DNA of 23,350 nt from Planctomycetota bacterium. GTDB lineage: Bacteria; Planctomycetota; JAZDJP01. Shown here one piece after another: positions 2,646 to 13,293 of the stretch (position 1 is its first letter; each line of letters begins with the position of its first letter). Both the position numbers and the translations under genes were made by a program. The notes under the pieces were generated by a model that was not told the DNA's origin, ran no database searches, and saw nothing but the letters and a program-made list of their open reading frames with translations. The stretch is from positions 1 to 23,350 of the forward strand of contig JAZDJP010000040.1 in assembly GCA_043803805.1 (NCBI GenBank), read 5' to 3'.

Positions 2646-3215
2646 ATGGAATGGCTCTACCTGTTTTTACTGCTCATCGGCCTGTTTTATGCGTTGATCG
2701 TCGGCGTCACCGGCGGCGTTTTCGGCGGCGACCACGGCGTCGGGATGGATGTGGATCACGACATCAGCGGCCATGTGGACACCGCGGCCGGGGCCGACCA
2801 CGGAACGGTGCACTTCTCCCCGTTCAGCCCGGTCATCCTTTCCATGTTTGTCGGCAGTTTCGGCGCGGCGGGGCTGATCGCCCAGAGATTCGTTTCCCCG
2901 TCCCTTCCCGTCCATCTCGCCATCGCGACGGGATCGGGAATTTTCATCGCGGCGCTGACCATGATCGTCTTCGGCAAACTCTTCAGCGTCACCCAGTCCT
3001 CCAGCCACTCCCGCCCCGGGGACCTCGTCAACCTGGAGGCCGAGGTGCTCACTCCCATCCCGGAGAATGGCCTGGGGAAGATCGCCTACGCCATCCGCGG
3101 GACGCGCCTCACGGCCTCGGCGCGATCGGAAAGCGGGAAGGCCATCCCCGCCAACGCGAGCGTGAAGGTCAAAAAAATCGCCGGCGACATCTTTTTCGTG
3201 GAATTGGTTTCGTGA
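2646..3215 (+). CDS. NfeD-like membrane protein (stomatin/flotillin operon partner) with a C-terminal OB-fold domain
   Basis: Hydrophobic N-terminal TM segments followed by a C-terminal beta-rich segment (GKIAYAIRGTRLTASARSESGKAIPANASVKVKKIAGDIFFVE) typical of short NfeD/YuaF. SD AGGAGGA lies 4 nt upstream of the ATG, and the gene is directly followed by a flotillin gene. Confidence 0.75.
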   Translation: MEWLYLFLLLIGLFYALIVGVTGGVFGGDHGVGMDVDHDISGHVDTAAGADHGTVHFSPFSPVILSMFVGSFGAAGLIAQRFVSPSLPVHLAIATGSGIFIAALTMIVFGKLFSVTQSSSHSRPGDLVNLEAEVLTPIPENGLGKIAYAIRGTRLTASARSESGKAIPANASVKVKKIAGDIFFVELVS

Positions 3216-3241
3216 TGAAAATTTTATAAGGAGACATGTCC

Positions 3242-4720
3242 ATGGGTCCCATCCCTTTCCTGCCGCTGGCGGAAATTTCCGGCGGCCACGTGGTGCTGGC
3301 CGCCCTCGCGGTGGTCGTCATCTTCTTCATCCTCATGACGGTCCTCCTCAAACGCTACATCAAGGTGGGACCGAATGAGGCCCTCATCATCTCGGGCCGC
3401 AAGCACACCTACTCCGGCCACAAGGGGGAGGATATCGCCGTCGGCTTCCGGATCGTGAAGGGCGGCGGGACGTTCGTCTGGCCCTTCATCGAAAAGGTGG
3501 ACATCCTCTCGATGGAACTCCTCACCCTCGACGTCAAACTCGAGGACGTGTACACCATCACGGGAGTCCCGGTGTACGTGGACGGCGTGGCCCAGATCAA
3601 GGTCAAGGGGGACGAAATCTCCATCGCGACCGCGTCGGAACAATTCCTTGGCAAAGACCAGGGCGAGATCATGCAGATCGCCCTCCAGACGGTGGAGGGG
3701 CATCTCCGGGCCATCGTCGGGACGCTGACCGTCGAGGAAATTTACAAGAACAGGGAAATGTTCTCCCAGAAGGTCCAGGAGGTGGCCGCCGGGGACCTCG
3801 CCAACATGGGGCTCACGGTGGTGTCGTTCACGCTGCGCGAGATCAAGGACAAACAGGGGTACCTCGACGCCTTGGGCCGGCCGCGCATCGCCCAGGTGAA
3901 GCGCGACGCGACCATCGCGGAGGCCGAGGCCTCGCGGGACGCCACCATCAAGAGCGCGCAGGCCAACCAGGAGGCCCAGCAGGCCAAGTTCGGGGCCGAG
4001 ACCAGGATCGCCGAGGCCAACCAGAGTTACGAGGTGAAAAAGGCCGAATATCAGGTCAACATCAACTGCCGGAAGGCCGATTCTGACCTGGCCTATGATT
4101 TGGAACGGTACAAGGTCGCCCAGCAGGTCAAGGCGGAGGAGATCAAAGTCCAGGTGATCGAACGCGAGCAGATGATTGACATCCAGGAGAAGGAAATCTC
4201 CCGGAGGCAAAAAGAACTGGAAGCGACCATCCAGAAGCCCGCCGACGCCGAGCGGTACAAGATCGAGACGCTGGCCAACGCCCAGCGCTTCAAGTACCAA
4301 ACGGAAGCGGAAGGGCAGGCCCTGGCGACGAAGTCCATCGGGTTCGCCGAGGCCGACGCCTCCCGGGCCAAGGGCATCGCCGTCGCCGATGTCATCAAGG
4401 CCCAGGGGTTCTCGGAGGCCGAGGCGATGACGAAGAAGGCCGACGCCTGGAAGTGCTACAACGAGGCGGCGCTCGCGCAAATTATTGTGGAGAAACTCCC
4501 GGAGATCGTCCGGGCCGCCGCGGAACCCCTGGCGAAGACGGAAAAGATGATCGTCATCAACGCCGGGAGCGAAGGCGGCGGGGCGTCCAAGATCACCAAG
4601 GACGTCACCACCATCGTCAGCCAGGTGCCGCCGATCATCGAGGCGCTGACGGGCCTGAAACTCGAGGACCTCATCGCCAGACTGCCGGGGATGGGAAAGA
4701 AGGATGGGGAAAAGAAGTAG
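3242..4720 (+). CDS. Flotillin-like SPFH/band-7 domain protein (FloT/YuaG-like)
   Basis: N-terminal TM, an SPFH domain, then a long Ala/Glu/Gln-rich coiled-coil flotillin region (EAEASRDATIKSAQANQEAQQAKF...). SD AAGGAGA at 3228-3234. The ATG at 3242 is preferred over 3236 because of spacing. Confidence 0.85.
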   Translation: MGPIPFLPLAEISGGHVVLAALAVVVIFFILMTVLLKRYIKVGPNEALIISGRKHTYSGHKGEDIAVGFRIVKGGGTFVWPFIEKVDILSMELLTLDVKLEDVYTITGVPVYVDGVAQIKVKGDEISIATASEQFLGKDQGEIMQIALQTVEGHLRAIVGTLTVEEIYKNREMFSQKVQEVAAGDLANMGLTVVSFTLREIKDKQGYLDALGRPRIAQVKRDATIAEAEASRDATIKSAQANQEAQQAKFGAETRIAEANQSYEVKKAEYQVNINCRKADSDLAYDLERYKVAQQVKAEEIKVQVIEREQMIDIQEKEISRRQKELEATIQKPADAERYKIETLANAQRFKYQTEAEGQALATKSIGFAEADASRAKGIAVADVIKAQGFSEAEAMTKKADAWKCYNEAALAQIIVEKLPEIVRAAAEPLAKTEKMIVINAGSEGGGASKITKDVTTIVSQVPPIIEALTGLKLEDLIARLPGMGKKDGEKK

Positions 4721-4941: not shown

Positions 4942-5175
4942 GTGGGCCCCATGAACAAACACGATCCGATTGCCTTTGTCATCCACTTTTTCGGAGGGGC
5001 GATCCTCGGAGGAGGAATGGGGTTCATCCTCGCCTGGTTTGAAGTCTGGGCGAAATGGGTCCCCGGTTGGTTGCTCATCGTCGGAGGCGCGTCGTTTATC
5101 GGTTTCGCGGCAGGCCATGATCAGGAGGAATTTTGGAAGTCCCTGTGGTTGCCACGATGGTGGAGAGATTGGTAA
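4942..5175 (+). CDS. Hypothetical small membrane protein (77 aa, two predicted TM segments)
   Basis: ORF with two hydrophobic stretches (IAFVIHFFGGAILGGGMGFILAWF and WLLIVGGASFIGFAAG); no clear SD. Confidence 0.4.
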   Translation: MGPMNKHDPIAFVIHFFGGAILGGGMGFILAWFEVWAKWVPGWLLIVGGASFIGFAAGHDQEEFWKSLWLPRWWRDW

Positions 5176-5400
5176 TTGTCAGGATGATCTGAAGTGGGTT
5201 ATCGATCCCCCAATTCCGAATCATTCGACAATTGATCGGCGAATCCGTCGTGAGCCCCGACCTTCCGCTTTCCCGCCCGTGGTGCTACCTCACCCCAACG
5301 ATTGTCCTGGCGGCGTTGGTCGCACTGGTGCTGACGTGAGGATGATTCGATTACCGGGACCGATGACGAAAATCACCCGCGCGCGGACGGACGGGGGCGA

Positions 5401-5622
5401 TCATCCCGCCGGCCGGCGCCTCCGGAAACTGGCCGCGATCCACCCCCGGTTCAAAATCACATGAAGGACGATGCCGACGATCAACACCGTCCCGCCCCCC
5501 TCGTGCGCCGCCTCGAAAACATCCCGGGGCAGATTGTCCGCCAAATACCCCGACAGCGCCTGCGTCACGGTGAGCAGGGCCAGCGCCGGGTTCAGGATTT
5601 TCAGCATTGTGGCTGTGGTCAT
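5401..5622 (-). CDS. Hypothetical small membrane protein (73 aa)
   Basis: ATG (reverse complement at 5620-5622) preceded by a strong SD GGGAGGG with a 5-nt spacer; high GC3; one hydrophobic segment (GTVLIVGIVLHVIL). The upstream in-frame extension overlapping the palindrome was rejected. Confidence 0.5.
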   Translation of the reverse strand: MTTATMLKILNPALALLTVTQALSGYLADNLPRDVFEAAHEGGGTVLIVGIVLHVILNRGWIAASFRRRRPAG

Positions 5623-5640
5623 GATTTCCCTCCCAACAAT

Positions 5641-5669
5641 GCAGGGGCGGGTTTGAAACCCGCCCCTAC
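5641..5669. repeat. 29-nt near-perfect palindrome GCAGGGGCGGGTTTGAAACCCGCCCCTAC with a 14-bp GC-rich stem and one mismatch in the left arm; REP-like element or terminator
   Basis: Read directly from the sequence; overlaps the stop codon (5666-5668) of the ankyrin gene; belongs to the same family as 6874-6901 and 11702-11730. Confidence 0.8.
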
Positions 5670-6832
5670 TTCTCCAACATCCCGACAATCGCCGGATTCT
5701 TCATTTCCTTCGCCAGCTTCACCGCCGTCCTTCCCTGCATATCGCACAATTTTTTATCGGCTCCGTTTTTCAAAAGAAGTGCGACCATATCCCGGTTCCC
5801 CTCCCGCACGGCGATATGCAACGGCGTATCACCAGCGGAGTCCTTGAAACCAACCTCCTCTACTACTTCGTTGACACTCCGTTCGGCAATATCCAACCAC
5901 CCATGCCGAACCGCCTCGTGTAAAACCGTGGTTTTGCCGGATGGCGCCTTAATTTTCGGATGGTGGTTCAATAACACGTCCACGATGCGCCGATTCCCTT
6001 GAACGGACGCCATCAGGAGCGGCGTGAGTCCATTCCGGGAGGTCGCATTCACATCCACATTCTGTGATAACAGGTACTGGACGGAATCCAAATCCTCCAT
6101 GACAATCGCCACGTGCAAGGGGCGATATCCCTCCTCCCCCAAGGCCTCCGGGGATTTTTTCATGAAGTCCTTGCGATTCTCCATCCCAAGCGCCAGGGCG
6201 ACATGAACATCCGGACGCGCCCCGCGACTGACCAGAAATTCCAATATGGACTTGAGAGACTCCGCCTCCGTCAATCGTTCCTGTAACCATCGGGGAAGAT
6301 TCTCCCGTCCGACCTTCATCTCATCCATGATCTTCGGCATCACCCTGACAAAGCACGTCGAAGCTGCGTAATGAACTGCCGCGCTATTCGCCAGAGATAT
6401 GCCATGTCTGTCCATCTCATTAACATCCGCCCCGTGCCGGATCATCAACTCCACCATTTTGCGCGTGCCGGAAAGGACAGCACTGCGCATGGCCGAACCA
6501 AACGACTTGTCCCGCAAATCCGCCCCTTGGGAAATCAGCAACTCCGCGACTTCAGCATTGTCAGCGAGCATCGCCCAAAAAAGCAACGGGAACCCGTTTT
6601 CATCCCGTTCATTGATGAGGTCCGGATTATTTCGAATCAACTCCTTCAATCGAAGTATGTCATTCTTCTTCACAGCCTCCGCCATCTTCTGCACCGTCAC
6701 CATCCGGTCCATTTTCCGAATATCGTCCTGTTTTTTCCAATGTTGATACATCCAACAAACGGCGCATATCCCCATCAGCACCAGCAACAGGCACAACCGA
6801 AGCCGACGATAAAATTCAACGGTCGTAATCAT
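5666..6832 (-). CDS. Ankyrin-repeat protein with an N-terminal membrane anchor
   Basis: Multiple ANK repeats (e.g. GYRPLHVAIVMEDLDSVQYLLSQNVDVNATSRNGLTPLLMASVQGNRRIVDVLL and DSAGDTPLHIAVREGNRDMVALLLKNGADKK); N-terminal hydrophobic helix LRLCLLLVLMGICAVCWMY; GC content about 50%, against about 65% in neighbouring genes. Confidence 0.85.
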   Translation of the reverse strand: MITTVEFYRRLRLCLLLVLMGICAVCWMYQHWKKQDDIRKMDRMVTVQKMAEAVKKNDILRLKELIRNNPDLINERDENGFPLLFWAMLADNAEVAELLISQGADLRDKSFGSAMRSAVLSGTRKMVELMIRHGADVNEMDRHGISLANSAAVHYAASTCFVRVMPKIMDEMKVGRENLPRWLQERLTEAESLKSILEFLVSRGARPDVHVALALGMENRKDFMKKSPEALGEEGYRPLHVAIVMEDLDSVQYLLSQNVDVNATSRNGLTPLLMASVQGNRRIVDVLLNHHPKIKAPSGKTTVLHEAVRHGWLDIAERSVNEVVEEVGFKDSAGDTPLHIAVREGNRDMVALLLKNGADKKLCDMQGRTAVKLAKEMKNPAIVGMLEK

Positions 6833-6873
6833 GCTCTTCCCCAGGCGAATTCATTTCCTTCCGCAATCCACAT

Positions 6874-6901
6874 GTAGGGGCACGTTGCAACGTGCCCCTA
6901 C
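6874..6901. repeat. 28-nt perfect palindrome GTAGGGGCACGTTGCAACGTGCCCCTAC
   Basis: Exact self-reverse-complement read directly from the sequence. It lies between the ThyA-like stop (6922) and the ankyrin start (6832) and shares GTAGGGGC/GCCCCTAC termini with the other two palindromes. Confidence 0.8.
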
Positions 6902-6921: not shown

Positions 6922-7905
6922 TCACGCCGTCAACCGCCCCGTTTCAATCTCCCGGATGAGATTTTCAAGAAGGGCGATTTTGTCGGGGGGGAAGCGCCAC
7001 TGGCGGCGGTTCTCGTCGGAGAGAAGCCCCTTGAGTTGCGGAATCACAAGCATCTCGGCGGCATCCTCGCTCCGGAGCGCCCGCGCCACGTAGGATTCCT
7101 CGTCGCACGTCTCGAAGAAACTCTTGATGCCTTTTGCGGGATCGCCCCCCACCCGGGCGAAGTCCTGACCGTAGATGTGAAGGCTGAAAACGTGGTCGGA
7201 GTAGCTCCCCACCTTCACCGGCCGATTCGCTTTCGCGGCGATGTCCTTCGCGATCATCTGCTGGAGAAACGTGATTCCAATTAAATTATCCGGCCAGGCC
7301 TTGTAGAGGTCGCGGCTGCGCCAGTGGGTGCTTAAATTCAGCACGAGATTCCCGTCGGCGTCCTCCGGACAGCGGAATTGCATCTCCCGCAGGCACGGGA
7401 CGTCCTCCTTCAGGAACGGATCGAGCCAGGGCGCCGGGGTGGAGGCGACCGCCCGGCGGGTGTGCGGGGTCTTCGCGACGCGCTCGATGGCGAGCGCCAC
7501 CTGGTCCACCGTCCCGCCATCCGGCCCCGGGTGGGCGAAAAGCCTCTGGTGGTACGTGTAGGGCCACTCCGTCGCGGCGAGTTCCCCGTGGATGGAGGCC
7601 TTGAGTTTTTCCACCGGCACCACGAGATGGTCCTTCACTCCGAGAAACTCGGCGATGTAGGTCCCGATTTCGCAGAAGGACACCGCCGGGTAGCGCGGCT
7701 GGGCGAAGGGATCCAGAATTTCCACGAGGACGCGGGCGTCGCGGCTGGGCGGGTCCATGAACGACCCGTCCGGATTCTTCCGGTCGTACTCCGTCCGCAT
7801 GGCCAATCCGTTCTCCCACACCGCCTTCATGGCGCGGTAGTGGGCGCGGGGAATGGACTCGGCGACGACGTGAAGAGTGGGCAGGCGGCCGGGGTTCGTG
7901 GACAT
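6922..7905 (-). CDS. Divergent thymidylate synthase (ThyA) family protein; a thymidylate synthase or pyrimidine-nucleotide C5 hydroxymethylase-like enzyme
   Basis: Aligns by eye to ThyA core motifs: YTYHQRLF (~YGxQWR), DQVALAIERVAKTPHTRRAVASTPAPW (~DQ...DPxSRRxIxSAWN), PCLREMQFRC (~PCHxxFQFYV, catalytic Cys), LSTHWRSRDLYKAWPDNLIGITFL (~LSCQLYQRSxDxxLGxPFNIASYALL), DHVFSLHIY (~GDxHxY). SD GGGAGGA lies 6 nt upstream of the ATG at 7905. The longer ORF extension to 8058 is a translation of the GAGTC repeat and was discarded. Confidence 0.75.
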   Translation of the reverse strand: MSTNPGRLPTLHVVAESIPRAHYRAMKAVWENGLAMRTEYDRKNPDGSFMDPPSRDARVLVEILDPFAQPRYPAVSFCEIGTYIAEFLGVKDHLVVPVEKLKASIHGELAATEWPYTYHQRLFAHPGPDGGTVDQVALAIERVAKTPHTRRAVASTPAPWLDPFLKEDVPCLREMQFRCPEDADGNLVLNLSTHWRSRDLYKAWPDNLIGITFLQQMIAKDIAAKANRPVKVGSYSDHVFSLHIYGQDFARVGGDPAKGIKSFFETCDEESYVARALRSEDAAEMLVIPQLKGLLSDENRRQWRFPPDKIALLENLIREIETGRLTA

Positions 7906-9325: not shown

Positions 9326-12300
9326 CTAGTCCGTGCGCTCGACCTTCGCGGTGGCCGTCCTTACCAGCGCCGCCTTGCCGGAACCGTCCCAGAACCGCAG
9401 CGCGGCAACCACCTCGGCGCCCACCTTCAGGTACGGGCCATCGCGCGTGACGAGCTCGACAACGAGTTTTTTACCGGCATGGACGGTGATGGTATCCCGG
9501 GCCTTGGGGTCCTCTCCCGGAAAGAACTTGCCATTGTTTCCCACGGTCGCGACGTGCATGTTCCAGGAGAGATTGACGTCCTTCTTGCCGGCGGAGTTGT
9601 CCAACTCCACGGCCACCTTGGCGTGGAGCGGCGAGCCGCCGTCGGGGCCGGGATTGTCCACGACGGGCATCCAGTCGCGCCAGAAGTAGACGTCCCCGGT
9701 CTTAATCTTGCAGTCGCCAACGGCCTCCCCGCGCTGGAGCACCACCTCGGCCCTGCCCGGCTCGACGATCTCGATTTCCACGGGGCCGGTGGTGACCTTG
9801 CCGTTCCAGAATGCGGTCCCCGCTTGCGGAACGTCGCAAGCCGCGGTCATGACGTACTTGCCGGGCGGCAGGGACTTCGACAAGATGTTTTTCCCCTCCT
9901 CGCCGACGTTCCAGAACTCACACATCAACAACGCCTGCGCTTTTTCACCGGCCTGTAAATTCACATCGGGGCGGAGAGGCATCGGCTTCGGCGGCGGGTG
10001 AATGCTCGCCGTGTACGTTTTCTTGCTTTCTTGCGCGACAAGACGCACTTTCCAACTCCATGTGTCAAGCACCCAACCCGGCAGTTTTATGGGCTGATTT
10101 CCCGCGTTCATGAGACAAGCATCCATCACAACCGGCTTCCCGGCCTCGAACTTCGCCTGCTTGGCCGACAGCCCCGCTTGGAGGCCGTTCACCGCCGAGC
10201 CCCAGGAAATGTTTTCAGCCTCCTTTCCACCCTTTTCTATCCGAATCGTCCAGACGTTTGAACTGACTTTTCCGCGAATCTGACGGATTCTATATTCGCC
10301 GGGTTTTTCGAATGAAAAAAAAGTTGAAAGAGGGATAACAAGAGTTTGTTCCTGCCCCGACGCCAGGGAGTAGCGAGTGTTGACGATATGGTTGGCGATA
10401 CGGCCCTTCACGGCTTTCCCATCAGGACCGATGACTTCCAACAACGCCGCGTTAAATGCTCCGAGGTAGAGATTTTCCTGAACATCTTCTTGGTCCATTT
10501 GCTCGAAATGGCCGACGTCCTGTATGGCTTCCTTGCCGCCGTTTCTTACGCCAAGTGTGACTTTGATGACCTCGTTCGGTGCGTATTCCGTCTTTTCCGA
10601 CCAGACGCCGCATTGAAGCCCCGCGTTCAGCCCGACCGACGCCTGGCCCCAGGAGATGTTGTCCTTCGGCACCGTCGATTTCGCGCCGCTTTTATCCCTG
10701 ACCTCGATCCTGATTGAACCGGTCTCCACCGCACCCGTCCATGCGGGAACGAGGTTCTGGGGCACGACCCTGACGTGTTTTCGCGTGTCGCCTCCCCATT
10801 GATATTTCGCTTTGACAAGGTACTCTCCTGCCGGCAAGGCATCGACATCAATCTTGGCGCCCGCAGGGGAGTTCCCGATTTTCCAGAATCCGCCGACCTC
10901 GCCAAAAACGATGGTCTCGATTTTCCGATCCTTCTTTTCGAATTCGCCAAGAGAAATATCTTCCCCTCCCGCCGACTTCGTCCAGTAGTAGATTTCTTTC
11001 CTTTCCCCGGATTCAAACGAGAGCGCGAACCGGTCCGGATGGTCCCAAGCATCCAGCCGGAGCGCTTTTCCCCCCGTATTTTCAAAATGAATAGCGAAAT
11101 TCATGGATTCGCCGGCCCTGAATACGTTTTGTCCTGCGGTTGCGATCCCCGCCTGCAGGCCGTTGACGGGCTGGCCCCAAGAAATGTTTTCAGCCTCCTT
11201 TCCACCCTTGGTCTGAATTTCAACCGCTGGTGAGCCGGCCTCGCCTATCCAGACTCCTTCCTTGCGGAGTTTTTCCAAGTACGCAACCGCCTCCGCCTTA
11301 TTGGCCTCGGTGTTCTCAACAAGGGAGTCCAGCGTCAGGGCGTACCGGAATCGCACCGCGCGGGCCCTTGCCTCCGGCGCGGCGCCGAAGAATTCCTTGA
11401 GAGAGCCCGACGAAAGCGCCGCGGTTTCCCCCGGCGCGATGATTTTGCGCTTGCCGTCGTAGATGCCGGCGTCGAGCACCGCGAGTTCTCCAGTTTTGTA
11501 GCTGAGCCCCTGACGTACGACCGCCCCCTTCTCGTCCACGAGTTCCCAGCCGGAGGAACCCCGATAGGTGCAGAGCGTCACGGGTTTGTCACCCTCGTTT
11601 CTGACAAATGCCCCGGCGCGCAATCCGTCTCGGTCTTTCGTCAACCGGACGCCAACAGACAGGCCGTTGACCGGCTGGCCCCAGGAAATGCCGTCGTTTA
11701 CGGGTGAATCCGTAGGGGCGGGTTTCAAACCCGCCCCTACATTGTCGGTTTTTTTCGTGACGTCCTCGCCCGCCCTGCACCCCGCCACCACCACCGCCAT
11801 TGCGAGAAACACCATTCCTGTGAATCCCAGCATCCAGGTATTCATCCGCGTCACAAGACGCCTCCTTTCGTCAAGAATTCCTTTCACACGCTCCTCAAGA
11901 TTCCACCGGGGATGCACGAGGCCCACCGCCGCCGGTGTGCGGTGGAAGATGCTCGTCTTCTCCGCGAGATCCAAGAGCATTTTGGCGTAACCCGGCGCGT
12001 TCCCCCGCCGCAATACATAATTGTCGCACACCTCCTCGCGGGCGCGGGCGAGTTCGCCGTTTGCCTTCCAGACAAACGGATGCCACCAGAACACGACTTC
12101 CGCGATGCGCTGAAGAAGTCCCACCAGATGATCCCGCTGAAGAACGTGGGCGCATTCGTGGACGAGAATATCGCGAAGTTCCACCGGACCGAGAAGTCCC
12201 GCCACCGGCGTCGGAAGCAAAATCATCGGCCGCGTGATGCCGAAACAGATCGGCCCCGTGATCTGCCCCGACATGCCGATCGGAGGAAGCGCGCGGACGC

Positions 12301-12880
12301 CGAGCGCATTTTTCACATCCGCCAGGACGGGCCCCATCTCGTCGTCATCCAGCGGGATGGCGCTTGTCCGGAGCGCCGTCTGGACTCCAAAACCATGAAT
12401 CAGACGAACCAGCATGACAAGAACTCCCCCCGCCCAGACGAGAAAAACGCCGCACACCGCGGCCCGAATCCGGTCCGCTCGGGAAAGCGGCGGCGACGCG
12501 GGTTTCACGGGCGTCGCCGGCGCGGTCTCCGCGCGGACGACCGGCGCCGGATGCGGGGAGACCGGGATGACGGGTTCCGAAACGGTTTGGATCGACGTCG
12601 CCGGTGCGGCCGCCGCCGGTGGGGAAACAGGTTTCTCCCTCAAGAAAGGAAGAGTAAACGTCGTGATCCCCGCCGCCTCCGCCACCACCGACACCAGCGG
12701 CGCGAGAAGCACCACCGCCAGGGCCGACAGCCACAATCCGTAACGGACGGCCGCCCCCGCCCGGCGGAAAATCCGGGAAAGCATCCAGGCCAGAGCCACC
12801 ACCACCGTGACCTGGATCAACGCATTCATCGCGGCGAGCGCCGCGGCGTCACCAAGATAAAATCGGAGAAGCGTCCTCAT
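9326..12880 (-). CDS. blaR1: BlaR1/MecR1-family M56 peptidase signal transducer (anti-repressor) with a very large C-terminal extracytoplasmic sensor built from about four tandem repeats, each of about 190 aa, carrying an ISWGQPVNGL motif
   Basis: N-terminal TM helices and the zinc-metalloprotease motif VHECAHVLQRDH characteristic of BlaR1; a further TM at about aa 350; the repeats contain DGISWGQPVNGL, ENISWGQPVNGLQAG, DNISWGQASVGLNAG and ENISWGSAVNGLQAG. The gene overlaps the upstream blaI-family gene by 4 nt (ATGA). Confidence 0.85.
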   Translation of the reverse strand: MRTLLRFYLGDAAALAAMNALIQVTVVVALAWMLSRIFRRAGAAVRYGLWLSALAVVLLAPLVSVVAEAAGITTFTLPFLREKPVSPPAAAAPATSIQTVSEPVIPVSPHPAPVVRAETAPATPVKPASPPLSRADRIRAAVCGVFLVWAGGVLVMLVRLIHGFGVQTALRTSAIPLDDDEMGPVLADVKNALGVRALPPIGMSGQITGPICFGITRPMILLPTPVAGLLGPVELRDILVHECAHVLQRDHLVGLLQRIAEVVFWWHPFVWKANGELARAREEVCDNYVLRRGNAPGYAKMLLDLAEKTSIFHRTPAAVGLVHPRWNLEERVKGILDERRRLVTRMNTWMLGFTGMVFLAMAVVVAGCRAGEDVTKKTDNVGAGLKPAPTDSPVNDGISWGQPVNGLSVGVRLTKDRDGLRAGAFVRNEGDKPVTLCTYRGSSGWELVDEKGAVVRQGLSYKTGELAVLDAGIYDGKRKIIAPGETAALSSGSLKEFFGAAPEARARAVRFRYALTLDSLVENTEANKAEAVAYLEKLRKEGVWIGEAGSPAVEIQTKGGKEAENISWGQPVNGLQAGIATAGQNVFRAGESMNFAIHFENTGGKALRLDAWDHPDRFALSFESGERKEIYYWTKSAGGEDISLGEFEKKDRKIETIVFGEVGGFWKIGNSPAGAKIDVDALPAGEYLVKAKYQWGGDTRKHVRVVPQNLVPAWTGAVETGSIRIEVRDKSGAKSTVPKDNISWGQASVGLNAGLQCGVWSEKTEYAPNEVIKVTLGVRNGGKEAIQDVGHFEQMDQEDVQENLYLGAFNAALLEVIGPDGKAVKGRIANHIVNTRYSLASGQEQTLVIPLSTFFSFEKPGEYRIRQIRGKVSSNVWTIRIEKGGKEAENISWGSAVNGLQAGLSAKQAKFEAGKPVVMDACLMNAGNQPIKLPGWVLDTWSWKVRLVAQESKKTYTASIHPPPKPMPLRPDVNLQAGEKAQALLMCEFWNVGEEGKNILSKSLPPGKYVMTAACDVPQAGTAFWNGKVTTGPVEIEIVEPGRAEVVLQRGEAVGDCKIKTGDVYFWRDWMPVVDNPGPDGGSPLHAKVAVELDNSAGKKDVNLSWNMHVATVGNNGKFFPGEDPKARDTITVHAGKKLVVELVTRDGPYLKVGAEVVAALRFWDGSGKAALVRTATAKVERTD
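10183..10234. repeat. Intragenic DNA repeat, copy 1 (52 nt; the last 34 nt are nearly identical to 11175-11208)
   Basis: GGCCGTTCACCGCCGAGCCCCAGGAAATGTTTTCAGCCTCCTTTCCACCCTT matches 11157-11208 with about 6 mismatches, and the 3-prime 34 nt differ at a single position. It encodes the KGGKEAENISWGQ segment of a sensor repeat. Confidence 0.7.
11157..11208. repeat. Intragenic DNA repeat, copy 2 (paired with 10183-10234)
   Basis: See copy 1. Weaker, more diverged copies occur near 10621-10660 and 11671-11700. Confidence 0.7.
11702..11730. repeat. 29-nt perfect palindrome GTAGGGGCGGGTTTCAAACCCGCCCCTAC located in frame inside the blaR1-like ORF, where it encodes the GAGLKPAPT linker segment
   Basis: Exact self-reverse-complement with a 14-bp stem; same family as 5641-5669 (opposite loop orientation) and 6874-6901. 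Confidence 0.8.
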
Positions 12881-13275
12881 GCGCGTTTCCTCCCCTTCTC
12901 GGCCGTGTCAATGAGTTTCCGGATGCGCGTGGTCTCCTCGGAGGTGAGATTCTCCCCGTCCACGAGGGCCGCCACGAGCCCCGACGCGGATCCCGCGAAG
13001 ACGGTCCGCACGAGACGCGACACGATCCCCCCCAAGGCCTGTTTGCGTTCGGTGGCCGCGGAATACACAAAACTGTTCCGCACCGCCCGACGAACCAGCC
13101 ACCCCCGTTCTTCGAGGCGCGTCATGTGAGTGAGGACGGTGTTCCGGGCCACCGGCCGCCGGGCGCGCAGAACATCCCAGACGTCCGCGACCGACGCCTC
13201 CCGGCGTTCCCAGATCACGTTCATGATCTCGAGTTGTCCGGGAGAAAGGGTTTCCGTGGAAGACATTCGGCCCAT
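12877..13275 (-). CDS. blaI: BlaI/MecI/CopY-family (penicillinase repressor) winged-helix transcriptional repressor
   Basis: N-terminus LSPGQLEIMNVIWERREASVADVWDVLRARRPVARNTVLTHMTRLEERGWL has the typical BlaI DNA-binding domain, followed by a C-terminal dimerisation region. SD GGAGG lies 6 nt upstream of ATG 13273-13275, and the stop overlaps the blaR1 start. Confidence 0.85.
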   Translation of the reverse strand: MGRMSSTETLSPGQLEIMNVIWERREASVADVWDVLRARRPVARNTVLTHMTRLEERGWLVRRAVRNSFVYSAATERKQALGGIVSRLVRTVFAGSASGLVAALVDGENLTSEETTRIRKLIDTAEKGRKRA

Positions 13276-13293
13276 GCGAGACCTCCTTCTCAA

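Follow-up and report, generated by a model that had tools for sequence, protein, structure and literature searches.

The TnpA_REP proteins of E. coli, Stenotrophomonas, and Marinomonas bind a folded single strand of a repetitive extragenic palindromic (REP) sequence, reading its GTAG foot together with features of the loop and stem, and they cleave and rejoin the DNA at nearby CT or CA dinucleotides (PMC8266576). GTAG REPs are known from Planctomycetes, Chloroflexi, and other bacteria (Di Nocera, De Gregorio, Rocco 2013; BMC Genomics 14:522; PMC3733652). They lie mostly between unidirectional or convergent open reading frames (ORFs); some are found in frame within genes and some are nested in other palindromes (PMC3733652). 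This text concerns three palindromes, called here REP1, REP2, and REP3, on contig JAZDJP010000040.1, which is deposited at NCBI as part of a metagenome-assembled genome (MAG) labelled "Planctomycetota bacterium". The contig was analyzed in its entirety (23,350 bp), and this whole stretch of DNA is referred to below as the window.

The closest described system is subclass 2.4 of TnpA_REP, as defined by Quentin, Siguier, Chandler, and Fichant (2018; BMC Genomics 19:475; PMC6006769), which corresponds to group 4 of the REP-associated tyrosine transposases (RAYTs) in the classification of Bertels. Its proteins have about 194 residues and carry the motifs NH[IFV]H, WQ, and YIxNNP. The canonical long REPs of this subclass have a stem bottom of three G-C pairs, and its "double foot" REPs carry GT[AG]G at the 5' end and C[TC]AC at the 3' end. 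Unique to the subclass is the presence of in-frame REPs within tnpA_REP itself, generally between HuH and Y, and REP insertions in coding sequences are tolerated in flexible linkers and loops. A double-foot REP could derive from a REP dimer by a central deletion. The distribution of the subclass is patchy over many phyla, resembling that of horizontally moving elements (PMC6006769). Bertels et al. (2017) found group 4 in 17 bacterial classes, with slow evolution and only moderately abundant flanking repeats.

Anatomy and class of the three palindromes

The sequence-only reading of the window described two palindromes, at 5641-5669 (REP1) and 6874-6901 (REP2), both of which are present there, and overlooked a third member of the family, REP3 (Table 1). 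REP2 is a perfect 28-mer palindrome and REP3 a perfect 29-nt palindrome, each with a double GTAG foot. REP1 is imperfect; on the plus strand its left foot is degenerate, GCAG, and the minus strand carries GTAG. Thus the termini said to be common to the two palindromes are correct for REP2 (GTAG/CTAC), but the left terminus of REP1 is GCAG instead. On the coding (minus) strand this mismatch becomes a G.U wobble, so that the RNA hairpin is complete. All three REPs have a GT[AG]G foot at the stem and a 10-bp stem beyond the foot, with a GGG/CCC stem base, that is, three G-C pairs formed by the GGG that follows GTAG and the CCC ahead of CTAC. The arms total 14 nt, and the loop is 0-1 nt. The family is built on a common module, GTAGGGGC/GCCCCTAC, around variable centers. 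The centers do differ, as had been claimed, but those of REP1 and REP2 share xxGTT...AACxx and are therefore less different than was stated.

Palindromes with arms of at least 12 nt number three in the window versus none in 30 first-order Markov simulations, so they are more than a product of chance; for the contig alone, the three copies in 23.35 kb compare with 0 expected. No other perfect hairpins with a GT[AG]G foot are present in the window. As RNA they are predicted to fold at about -28 kcal/mol, with z of about -5. Scanned in full against Rfam at E <= 1, the window gave two sub-threshold matches elsewhere and none to the palindromes. REP1 and REP2 are placed between co-directional genes, which encode a ThyA-like protein, an ankyrin-repeat protein, and a 73-aa membrane protein. 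REP3 is placed in frame within the coding sequence of an M56 family metallopeptidase.

Judged by their sequence, the three palindromes very probably belong to the GTAG-tagged REP super-family and to its double-foot type, that of TnpA_REP subclass 2.4 or RAYT group 4. The elements in the window show every sequence-level feature of double-foot REPs (length, feet, G-C stem base, and placement), including the GT[AG]G foot with its reverse complement at the 3' end and the three G-C pairs at the bottom of the stem. Proteins associated with the same palindromes in other genomes extend the likeness, with about 190 residues, motifs similar to NHVH, WQ, and YIxNNP, an in-frame REP in the transposase between HuH and Y, and a patchy spread over phyla. 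The elements are new members of a published REP class, and the REP option raised by the sequence-only reading is borne out by the shared module, the variable centers, and the RAYT link in other genomes. There are also differences. The cognate transposase is absent from this contig; and the literature consulted neither spells out the 29-mer or its base identity across phyla nor singles out Planctomycetota as hosts of subclass 2.4. Neither the 29-mer nor its encoded peptides turned up anything relevant in a full-text search of the literature.

Other known systems are more distant. The GTAG REP families, including SMAG, resemble the elements of the window in being GC-rich stem-loops of 20-40 bp with a GTAG tag, positioned chiefly between unidirectional or convergent ORFs but now and then in frame inside a gene, with Planctomycetes and Chloroflexi among the hosts, and with several core variants possible in one genome. 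However, their GTAG is unpaired and at one end, whereas that of the window is paired with CTAC, so that both strands present the same element. For the E. coli REP/BIME system and its TnpA_REP (4ER8; Ton-Hoang 2012, Messing 2012, Corneloup 2021), the likeness lies in an HUH/Y1 nuclease that reads a folded single-stranded hairpin and GTAG. E. coli REPs, in contrast, are imperfect with a bulge, have a single foot, and usually form BIMEs; their TnpA_REP lacks a REP-encoded insert, and the protein similarity is remote. REPINs (Bertels and Rainey 2011) are likewise non-autonomous and RAYT-dependent, but a REPIN consists of two inverted REPs and a short spacer, which together fold into one larger hairpin. 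Each element in the window is a single palindrome of 28-29 nt, and REP1 is separated from REP2 by 1.2 kb that contain a gene. Nor do they delimit a REPtron or an IS200/IS605-like unit, as the ankyrin gene between the hairpins has no Y1_Tnp match. Rickettsia palindromic elements (RPE) are palindromic repeats that, like REP3, are kept in frame in coding genes. However, they measure 100-150 bp, are confined to a single lineage, and are not known to have a transposase of their own (see also the background given in PMC3733652).

Recurrence in other genomes and the link to RAYTs

A scan of one genome per species with the pattern GTAGGGGCNNGTTN{2,3}AACNNGCCCCTAC yielded at least 120 stretches, and the following results refer to the 120 loci listed among these matches. 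The hosts include Chloroflexota (many, with complete Dehalococcoidia chromosomes among them), Thermodesulfobacteriota/"Deltaproteobacteria", Nitrospirota, Binatia, Rubrobacter, anammox and other Planctomycetota, Omnitrophota, Patescibacteria, Acidobacteriota, Gemmatimonadota, Latescibacterota, Alpha-, Beta-, and Gammaproteobacteria (including the isolate Lamprocystis purpurea DSM 4197), an Oscillatoriales cyanobacterium, and others. Some bins may hold misassigned contigs; at least seven phyla are backed by contigs of 0.7-4.8 Mb. The dominant form is the 29-mer of the window with any loop base (89 of 134 palindromes), and the 28-mer of REP2 is found identically at five loci of other lineages (L026, L044, L053, L081, and L100). 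Directly outside the 29-mer the information content drops to about zero, indicating that the flanks are unrelated. When the ORFs were clustered, no gene family commonly adjoined the palindrome; the families found nearby are generic housekeeping ones (ABC transporters, aminotransferases, histidine kinases, SDR, DnaJ). Long read-through ORFs contain fewer palindromes than expected (16% versus 38% for random positions), and the TAG of the foot is not enriched as a stop codon (19/134 versus about 12% expected). In a scan of IMG/VR, 24 viral-contig stretches carry the pattern.

The sequence stays the same at every base although its contexts are unrelated and the composition of the host loci varies (from 36 to 71% GC), and this exact conservation points to a sequence-specific enzyme acting in trans rather than to local selection for terminators or operators. 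Several other origins were considered and dropped, namely CRISPR repeats, a protein operator site, and a sequencing or assembly artifact: the copies are solitary, their contexts are unrelated, and they are present not only in MAGs but also in assemblies of isolates and of chromosomes from long reads.

Some individual loci show further arrangements. On a predicted viral contig (L149, 5174-6032; IMGVR_UViG_3300031670_000658), a 367-aa ORF contains in-frame copies of the palindrome along with decayed relatives, and beside it lies a 445-aa ORF that is portal-like by appearance. On a Patescibacteria contig of 36% GC (L069, about 1380-1470), the 29-mer occupies the exact center of a longer AT-rich inverted repeat and is thus nested in another hairpin. 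At L042 (about 2260-2370), similar direct repeats of about 40 nt border the 29-mer on either side.

The association with RAYTs emerged only from the ORFs that contain a palindrome, not from adjacent ones. In loci from Binatia (L034), Dehalococcoidia (L092), and Gemmatimonadota (L120), the 29-mer lies in frame within an ORF of about 190 aa, and the peptide it encodes, VGAG(L/F)KPAPT, falls between the HUH and Tyr motifs. Whether position 5 of the peptide is F or L is an effect of the loop base. The ORFs have the form ...VVMPNHVHGI..-VGAG(F/L)KPAPT-..LSEIVRAIKTFS..VWQRNYY.H.IRN....IR.YI.DNP. They match Pfam Y1_Tnp above the cutoff, and their best NCBIfam model is the REP-associated tyrosine transposase (E 9e-20), the match being split in two by the insert. 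In addition, these genes are flanked by REPs with the GTAGGGGC foot. Homology searching recovers at least 7983 relatives of these proteins at E <= 1e-10, several of them named "REP element-mobilizing transposase RayT" by JGI, and the aligned homologues are 54-74% identical. When a profile of 25 family members was compared with the PDB, the sole match was E. coli TnpA_REP (4ER8; E 6e-05), aligned on both sides of the insert; with a single sequence as the query, the result was marginal (E 0.42).

In the listed homologues, the peptide is often tandem, partial, or multiple, and it is sometimes present at the ends of the protein too. Long runs of tandem or partial REP peptides between HUH and Tyr are seen in P0243-P0246, P0295, P0304, P0309, P0315, and P0321, for example as repeats of VGAGFNPDN or as GSVGAGSVGSGSVGAG..., so that proteins of about 180 aa are lengthened to about 300 aa. 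The internal REP thus appears to expand and decay in place within RAYT-like genes.

Several points weigh against assigning the three palindromes to this system. No gene for a RAYT or Y1 transposase is present among the 107 ORFs of at least 100 aa on the 23-kb contig, and for this reason the cognate RAYT is assumed to be encoded elsewhere in this genome. Only three copies are seen, all on a single contig. The placement in subclass 2.4 was made through published descriptions and motif similarity (NHVH, WQ, YIx[ND]NP), not with the models of the authors who defined it. In the literature, no report of experimental transposition by any group-4 RAYT was found. Finally, VGAG(L/F)KPAPT is carried between HUH and the next helix by 120 of the 120 listed homologues, a count that is inflated because the peptide was part of the query itself and because search candidates are chosen for words they have in common with the query.

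The mechanism proposed here builds on what is directly observed, namely the sequences themselves, the way they recur between unrelated flanks in many phyla, and the copies in and beside RAYT-like genes elsewhere. The REP elements would be non-autonomous, and the copies in the window would have been mobilized and seeded by a RAYT/TnpA_REP, a single-domain HUH/Y1 nuclease of group 4. This enzyme would recognize the folded single-stranded hairpin and its GTAG foot, and then nick and rejoin the DNA. Because the element is a full palindrome, both strands presumably offer the same substrate. New copies would land mostly in tolerant sites, such as co-directional spacers, the 3' ends of ORFs, and disordered protein linkers. 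REP2 would then have entered the spacer between the ThyA-like and ankyrin genes, REP1 the last codons of the ankyrin gene, and REP3, in frame as 29+1 nt, a linker of the M56 protein. By analogy with E. coli REP325, which is a partly Rho-dependent terminator and an mRNA stabilizer (bioRxiv 10.64898/2026.03.23.713779), the transcribed hairpins of REP1 and REP2 may shield the upstream RNA of the probable polycistron from 3' exonucleases or attenuate read-through.

The 28/29-mers are conserved to the base in hosts of very different GC content, and they travel with a well-conserved RAYT family that has its own REP inserted in frame. The 29-mer and its RAYT are thus a convenient model for studying the upkeep of REP specificity and whether systems of this kind move horizontally. 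The remaining points of moderate interest are the base identity across phyla, the copies on some viral contigs, and the three insertion outcomes on one contig.

Proposed insertion outcomes and the question of a cassette

Within the 89-nt spacer between the ThyA-like and ankyrin genes, REP2 leaves 20 nt on the side of the ThyA-like stop (6922) and 41 nt on the side of the ankyrin ATG (6832). At REP1, the minus-strand GTAG foot provides the stop codon of the ankyrin gene, TAG (5668-5666). REP1 ends 18 nt ahead of the ATG (5622) of the 73-aa gene, and the strong Shine-Dalgarno sequence of that gene, GGGAGGG, begins 5 nt past REP1. When the 29 nt of REP1 are removed in silico, the ankyrin ORF gains six codons (LLGGKS after ...MLEK), and its new TGA stop forms an ATGA with the start codon of the 73-aa gene (window 5620-5669), an outcome expected by chance in one frame in three and so suggestive only. 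A stop/start overlap of this kind is the classic arrangement for translational coupling. Since the removal of REP1 restores it, the sequence suggests that REP1 inserted into the 3' end of an ankyrin gene already in an operon, rather than bounding an incoming cassette. REP1 seems to have swapped six C-terminal codons of the ankyrin gene and to have broken its translational coupling with the 73-aa gene.

REP3 encodes VGAGLKPAPT, which forms residues 381-390 of the M56 protein, 14 residues past a conserved transmembrane helix (...VVAGC). M56 homologues diverge past this helix, that is, the linker is not conserved, and the peptide is present in none of the 13 closest homologues. Removal of 29 nt breaks the frame, and removal of 30 nt (29+1) keeps it. 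The site fits the tolerance of coding insertions in flexible linkers and loops (PMC6006769). NCBI annotates the gene as one protein of 1184 aa. A lipoprotein starting at 11851 was considered as the host of REP3 and rejected; Pfam and NCBI both give a single M56 ORF, and the supposed signal peptide is an internal transmembrane helix. The contig would hold three typical fates of insertion: a copy in a spacer, a copy that supplies a new stop and breaks coupling, and a copy that encodes an in-frame decapeptide in a linker. For annotators, VGAG(L/F)KPAPT, or RGGF(E/Q)TRPY in another frame, is best read as encoded by a REP and not as a protein motif.

The gene between REP1 and REP2 is unusual in its own right. 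The sequence-only reading called it a low-GC gene, and it is indeed the gene of lowest GC on the contig, at 53.0% rather than the estimated 50% or so. In 60-bp windows its GC spans 40-62% (42-60% had been given), with 64-67% for its neighbors (given as 65-68%) and 61.3% for the window. It is also the 1167-bp stretch of lowest GC on the contig, the other stretches having a mean of 61.8% (standard deviation 2.9). The second-lowest stretch, 9941-11107 in the C-terminal part of the M56 gene, has 54.6%, and low GC is thus not unique to the ankyrin gene. At third codon positions its GC of 65.7% is again the lowest (other genes, 72-89%), and its codon-usage distance is the largest among genes of more than 100 codons. 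Among 5.8 billion sequences, the next match to the ankyrin protein has 28% identity, with no relative above it, which makes it an orphan. Given the atypical composition and the lack of a close homologue, a foreign origin of the gene is possible. Such an origin is not tied to the REPs, and the low GC requires a separate explanation. In a synteny comparison by way of the ThyA-like homologues, the nearest relatives are about 71% identical in the ThyA-like protein and have none of the neighboring genes in common.

The sequence-only reading suggested that the ankyrin gene is a cassette bounded by the palindromes, or at least a gene insulated by them. Given two intergenic REPs and about 16 gene boundaries, the same gene would be flanked by both with a chance of p ~0.13, or about one in eight. 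A Chloroflexota MAG (L113, 2041-2483) provides a second example of this layout: two double-foot REPs bracket an ordinary gene for a 123-aa J-domain membrane protein, and the first REP gives the TAG stop of the upstream DnaJ-like gene, as at the ankyrin gene. With these two points and the ATGA overlap restored by removing REP1, the cassette claim is left without support, and the bracketing of the ankyrin gene is most likely incidental.

A more specific form of the cassette idea is that 5641-6901 (REP1, the ankyrin gene, and REP2) is a composite cargo, which a RAYT moved as a unit by means of the outer hairpins, in the manner of the TnpA of IS200/IS605, so that a foreign gene was delivered between the ThyA-like and 73-aa genes. 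This is quite unlikely; it is retained at all because the flanked gene has the most atypical composition on the contig, as the outlier among 16 gene segments, and is an orphan whose protein has no homologue above 28% identity. That this gene, of all genes, is the one between both intergenic REPs speaks for the cargo, as does the result of removing 5641-6901, which leaves a plausible spacer of 38 nt between the ThyA-like and 73-aa genes with the Shine-Dalgarno sequence intact. In addition, RAYTs are the closest relatives of the IS200/IS605 transposases (PMC8266576). However, the excision of REP1 by itself restores ATGA, which suggests that the ankyrin and 73-aa genes were coupled beforehand and that REP1 lies within the ankyrin ORF. 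Moreover, the cores of REP1 and REP2 differ, flanking by two REPs is expected by chance in about one case in eight and is seen around the ordinary gene in L113, and neither a second copy nor an empty site was found among 5.8 billion proteins and the relatives examined. The literature found contains no report of a pair of REPs mobilizing a gene other than a RAYT. It may be that REPs simply accumulate around dispensable, recently acquired DNA. If the cargo were real, REP/RAYT systems, which are usually seen as domesticated and vertically inherited, could shuttle cargo genes. The 29-mer/RAYT pair, which is identical to the base in many phyla and is also found on some predicted viral contigs, would then travel horizontally instead of being bound to a lineage.

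A different view is that the hairpins are chiefly regulatory RNA of the host (stabilizers, attenuators, or terminators) that is kept by selection on the expression of the ThyA-like, ankyrin, and 73-aa genes, any mobile ancestry being irrelevant. The positions of REP1 and REP2 in the spacers of three co-directional genes are consistent with this, as are the predicted fold of the coding strand, the fact that the REP1 mismatch pairs (as G.U) only on the transcribed strand, and the precedent of the E. coli REP that terminates and stabilizes mRNA. Nevertheless, this view is very unlikely. The sequence-only reading had suggested bidirectional terminators, but a promoter/terminator scan calls none of the three palindromes as an intrinsic terminator, no T-run directly follows the stems, and one copy is intragenic. 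The minus-strand tails lack a T-run (AUUGUUGG for REP1 and AUGUGGAU for REP2), and the plus-strand tail of REP3 has a run of seven T residues, but this begins 9 nt past the stem at an intragenic site. Identical 28/29-mers occur in unrelated contexts in many phyla and also inside coding sequences, including that of REP3, which argues that the REP sequence is dictated by something beyond local regulation.

Integron attC sites are about 57-141 nt long and contain R''/L'' and L'/R' boxes (RYYYAAC...GTTRRRY) and extrahelical bases. That the palindromes are such sites and the ankyrin gene an integron cassette, as the sequence-only reading also offered, has a negligible probability. It shares with the locus only the general idea of a folded single-stranded palindrome beside a compositionally odd gene, and it fails on length (28-29 nt), on the ends (GTAG/CTAC without the boxes), on the lack of extrahelical bases, and on the layout, with a palindrome on each side of the gene instead of one at its 3' end. 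The neighbors are ordinary housekeeping-type genes, and no integrase or tyrosine recombinase is encoded among the 107 ORFs. The hairpins of this locus are most probably selfish or domesticated REP repeats, and neither cassette boundaries nor terminators that evolved for these genes.

Gene map and further observations

The coordinates of the palindromes and of the genes around them are collected in Table 1.

Table 1. The REP palindromes and other features of the window
Feature	Coordinates	Strand	Length	Remarks
Terminator-like hairpin, then T-run	5393-5374	minus		3' of the stop of the 73-aa gene; consensus scan only
73-aa membrane protein gene	5401-5622	minus	73 aa	weak DUF4405/cytochrome-b561-like match; MFH1022598.1
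REP1	5641-5669		29 nt	GCAGGGGCGGGTTTGAAACCCGCCCCTAC; overlaps the end of the ankyrin ORF
Ankyrin-repeat gene	5666-6832	minus	1167 bp, 388 aa	hydrophobic N-terminal anchor; Ank_2, E 8.5e-41; MFH1022599.1
REP2	6874-6901		28 nt	GTAGGGGCACGTTGCAACGTGCCCCTAC; spacer between the ThyA-like and ankyrin genes
ThyA-like gene	6922-7905	minus		first of the tandem trio; Pfam Thymidylat_synt, E 8e-10; REP2 in 3' flank
M56 family (BlaR1-like) metallopeptidase gene	9326-12880	minus	1184 aa	host of REP3
REP3	11712-11740		29 nt	GTAGGGGCGGGTTTCAAACCCGCCCCTAC; in frame inside the M56 gene
BlaI-like repressor gene	12877-13293			precedes the M56 gene; 4-nt overlap with the M56 start

The ThyA-like, ankyrin, and 73-aa genes form a co-directional tandem on the minus strand. 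Because the hairpin with its T-run follows the last of them, they are probably a single transcription unit, with this hairpin as its probable real end. The convergent junction at 5175-5401 contains no REP.

The match of the ThyA-like protein to the Pfam thymidylate synthase family is weak and partial, and the protein is perhaps not a canonical thymidylate synthase. Its own family is large and well conserved, with 2062 relatives at E <= 1e-20, best matches of 65-73% identity, and hosts among the Planctomycetota, Hydrogenedentes, and Latescibacteria. Elsewhere on the contig, 2646-4720 on the plus strand holds an NfeD-like gene with a flotillin/SPFH (Band_7) gene immediately after it, as is usual for NfeD-SPFH operons.

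A different REP family, GTGGCGCAATCCTCCTGGATTGCG, with a GTGG foot, is present on a Planctomycetota contig downstream of a rhomboid gene, where it forms a tandem cluster with a period of 33 nt (L121, 10415-10570; L122, 10415-10471). Five copies in one assembly versus two in a near-identical one amount to a copy-number polymorphism.

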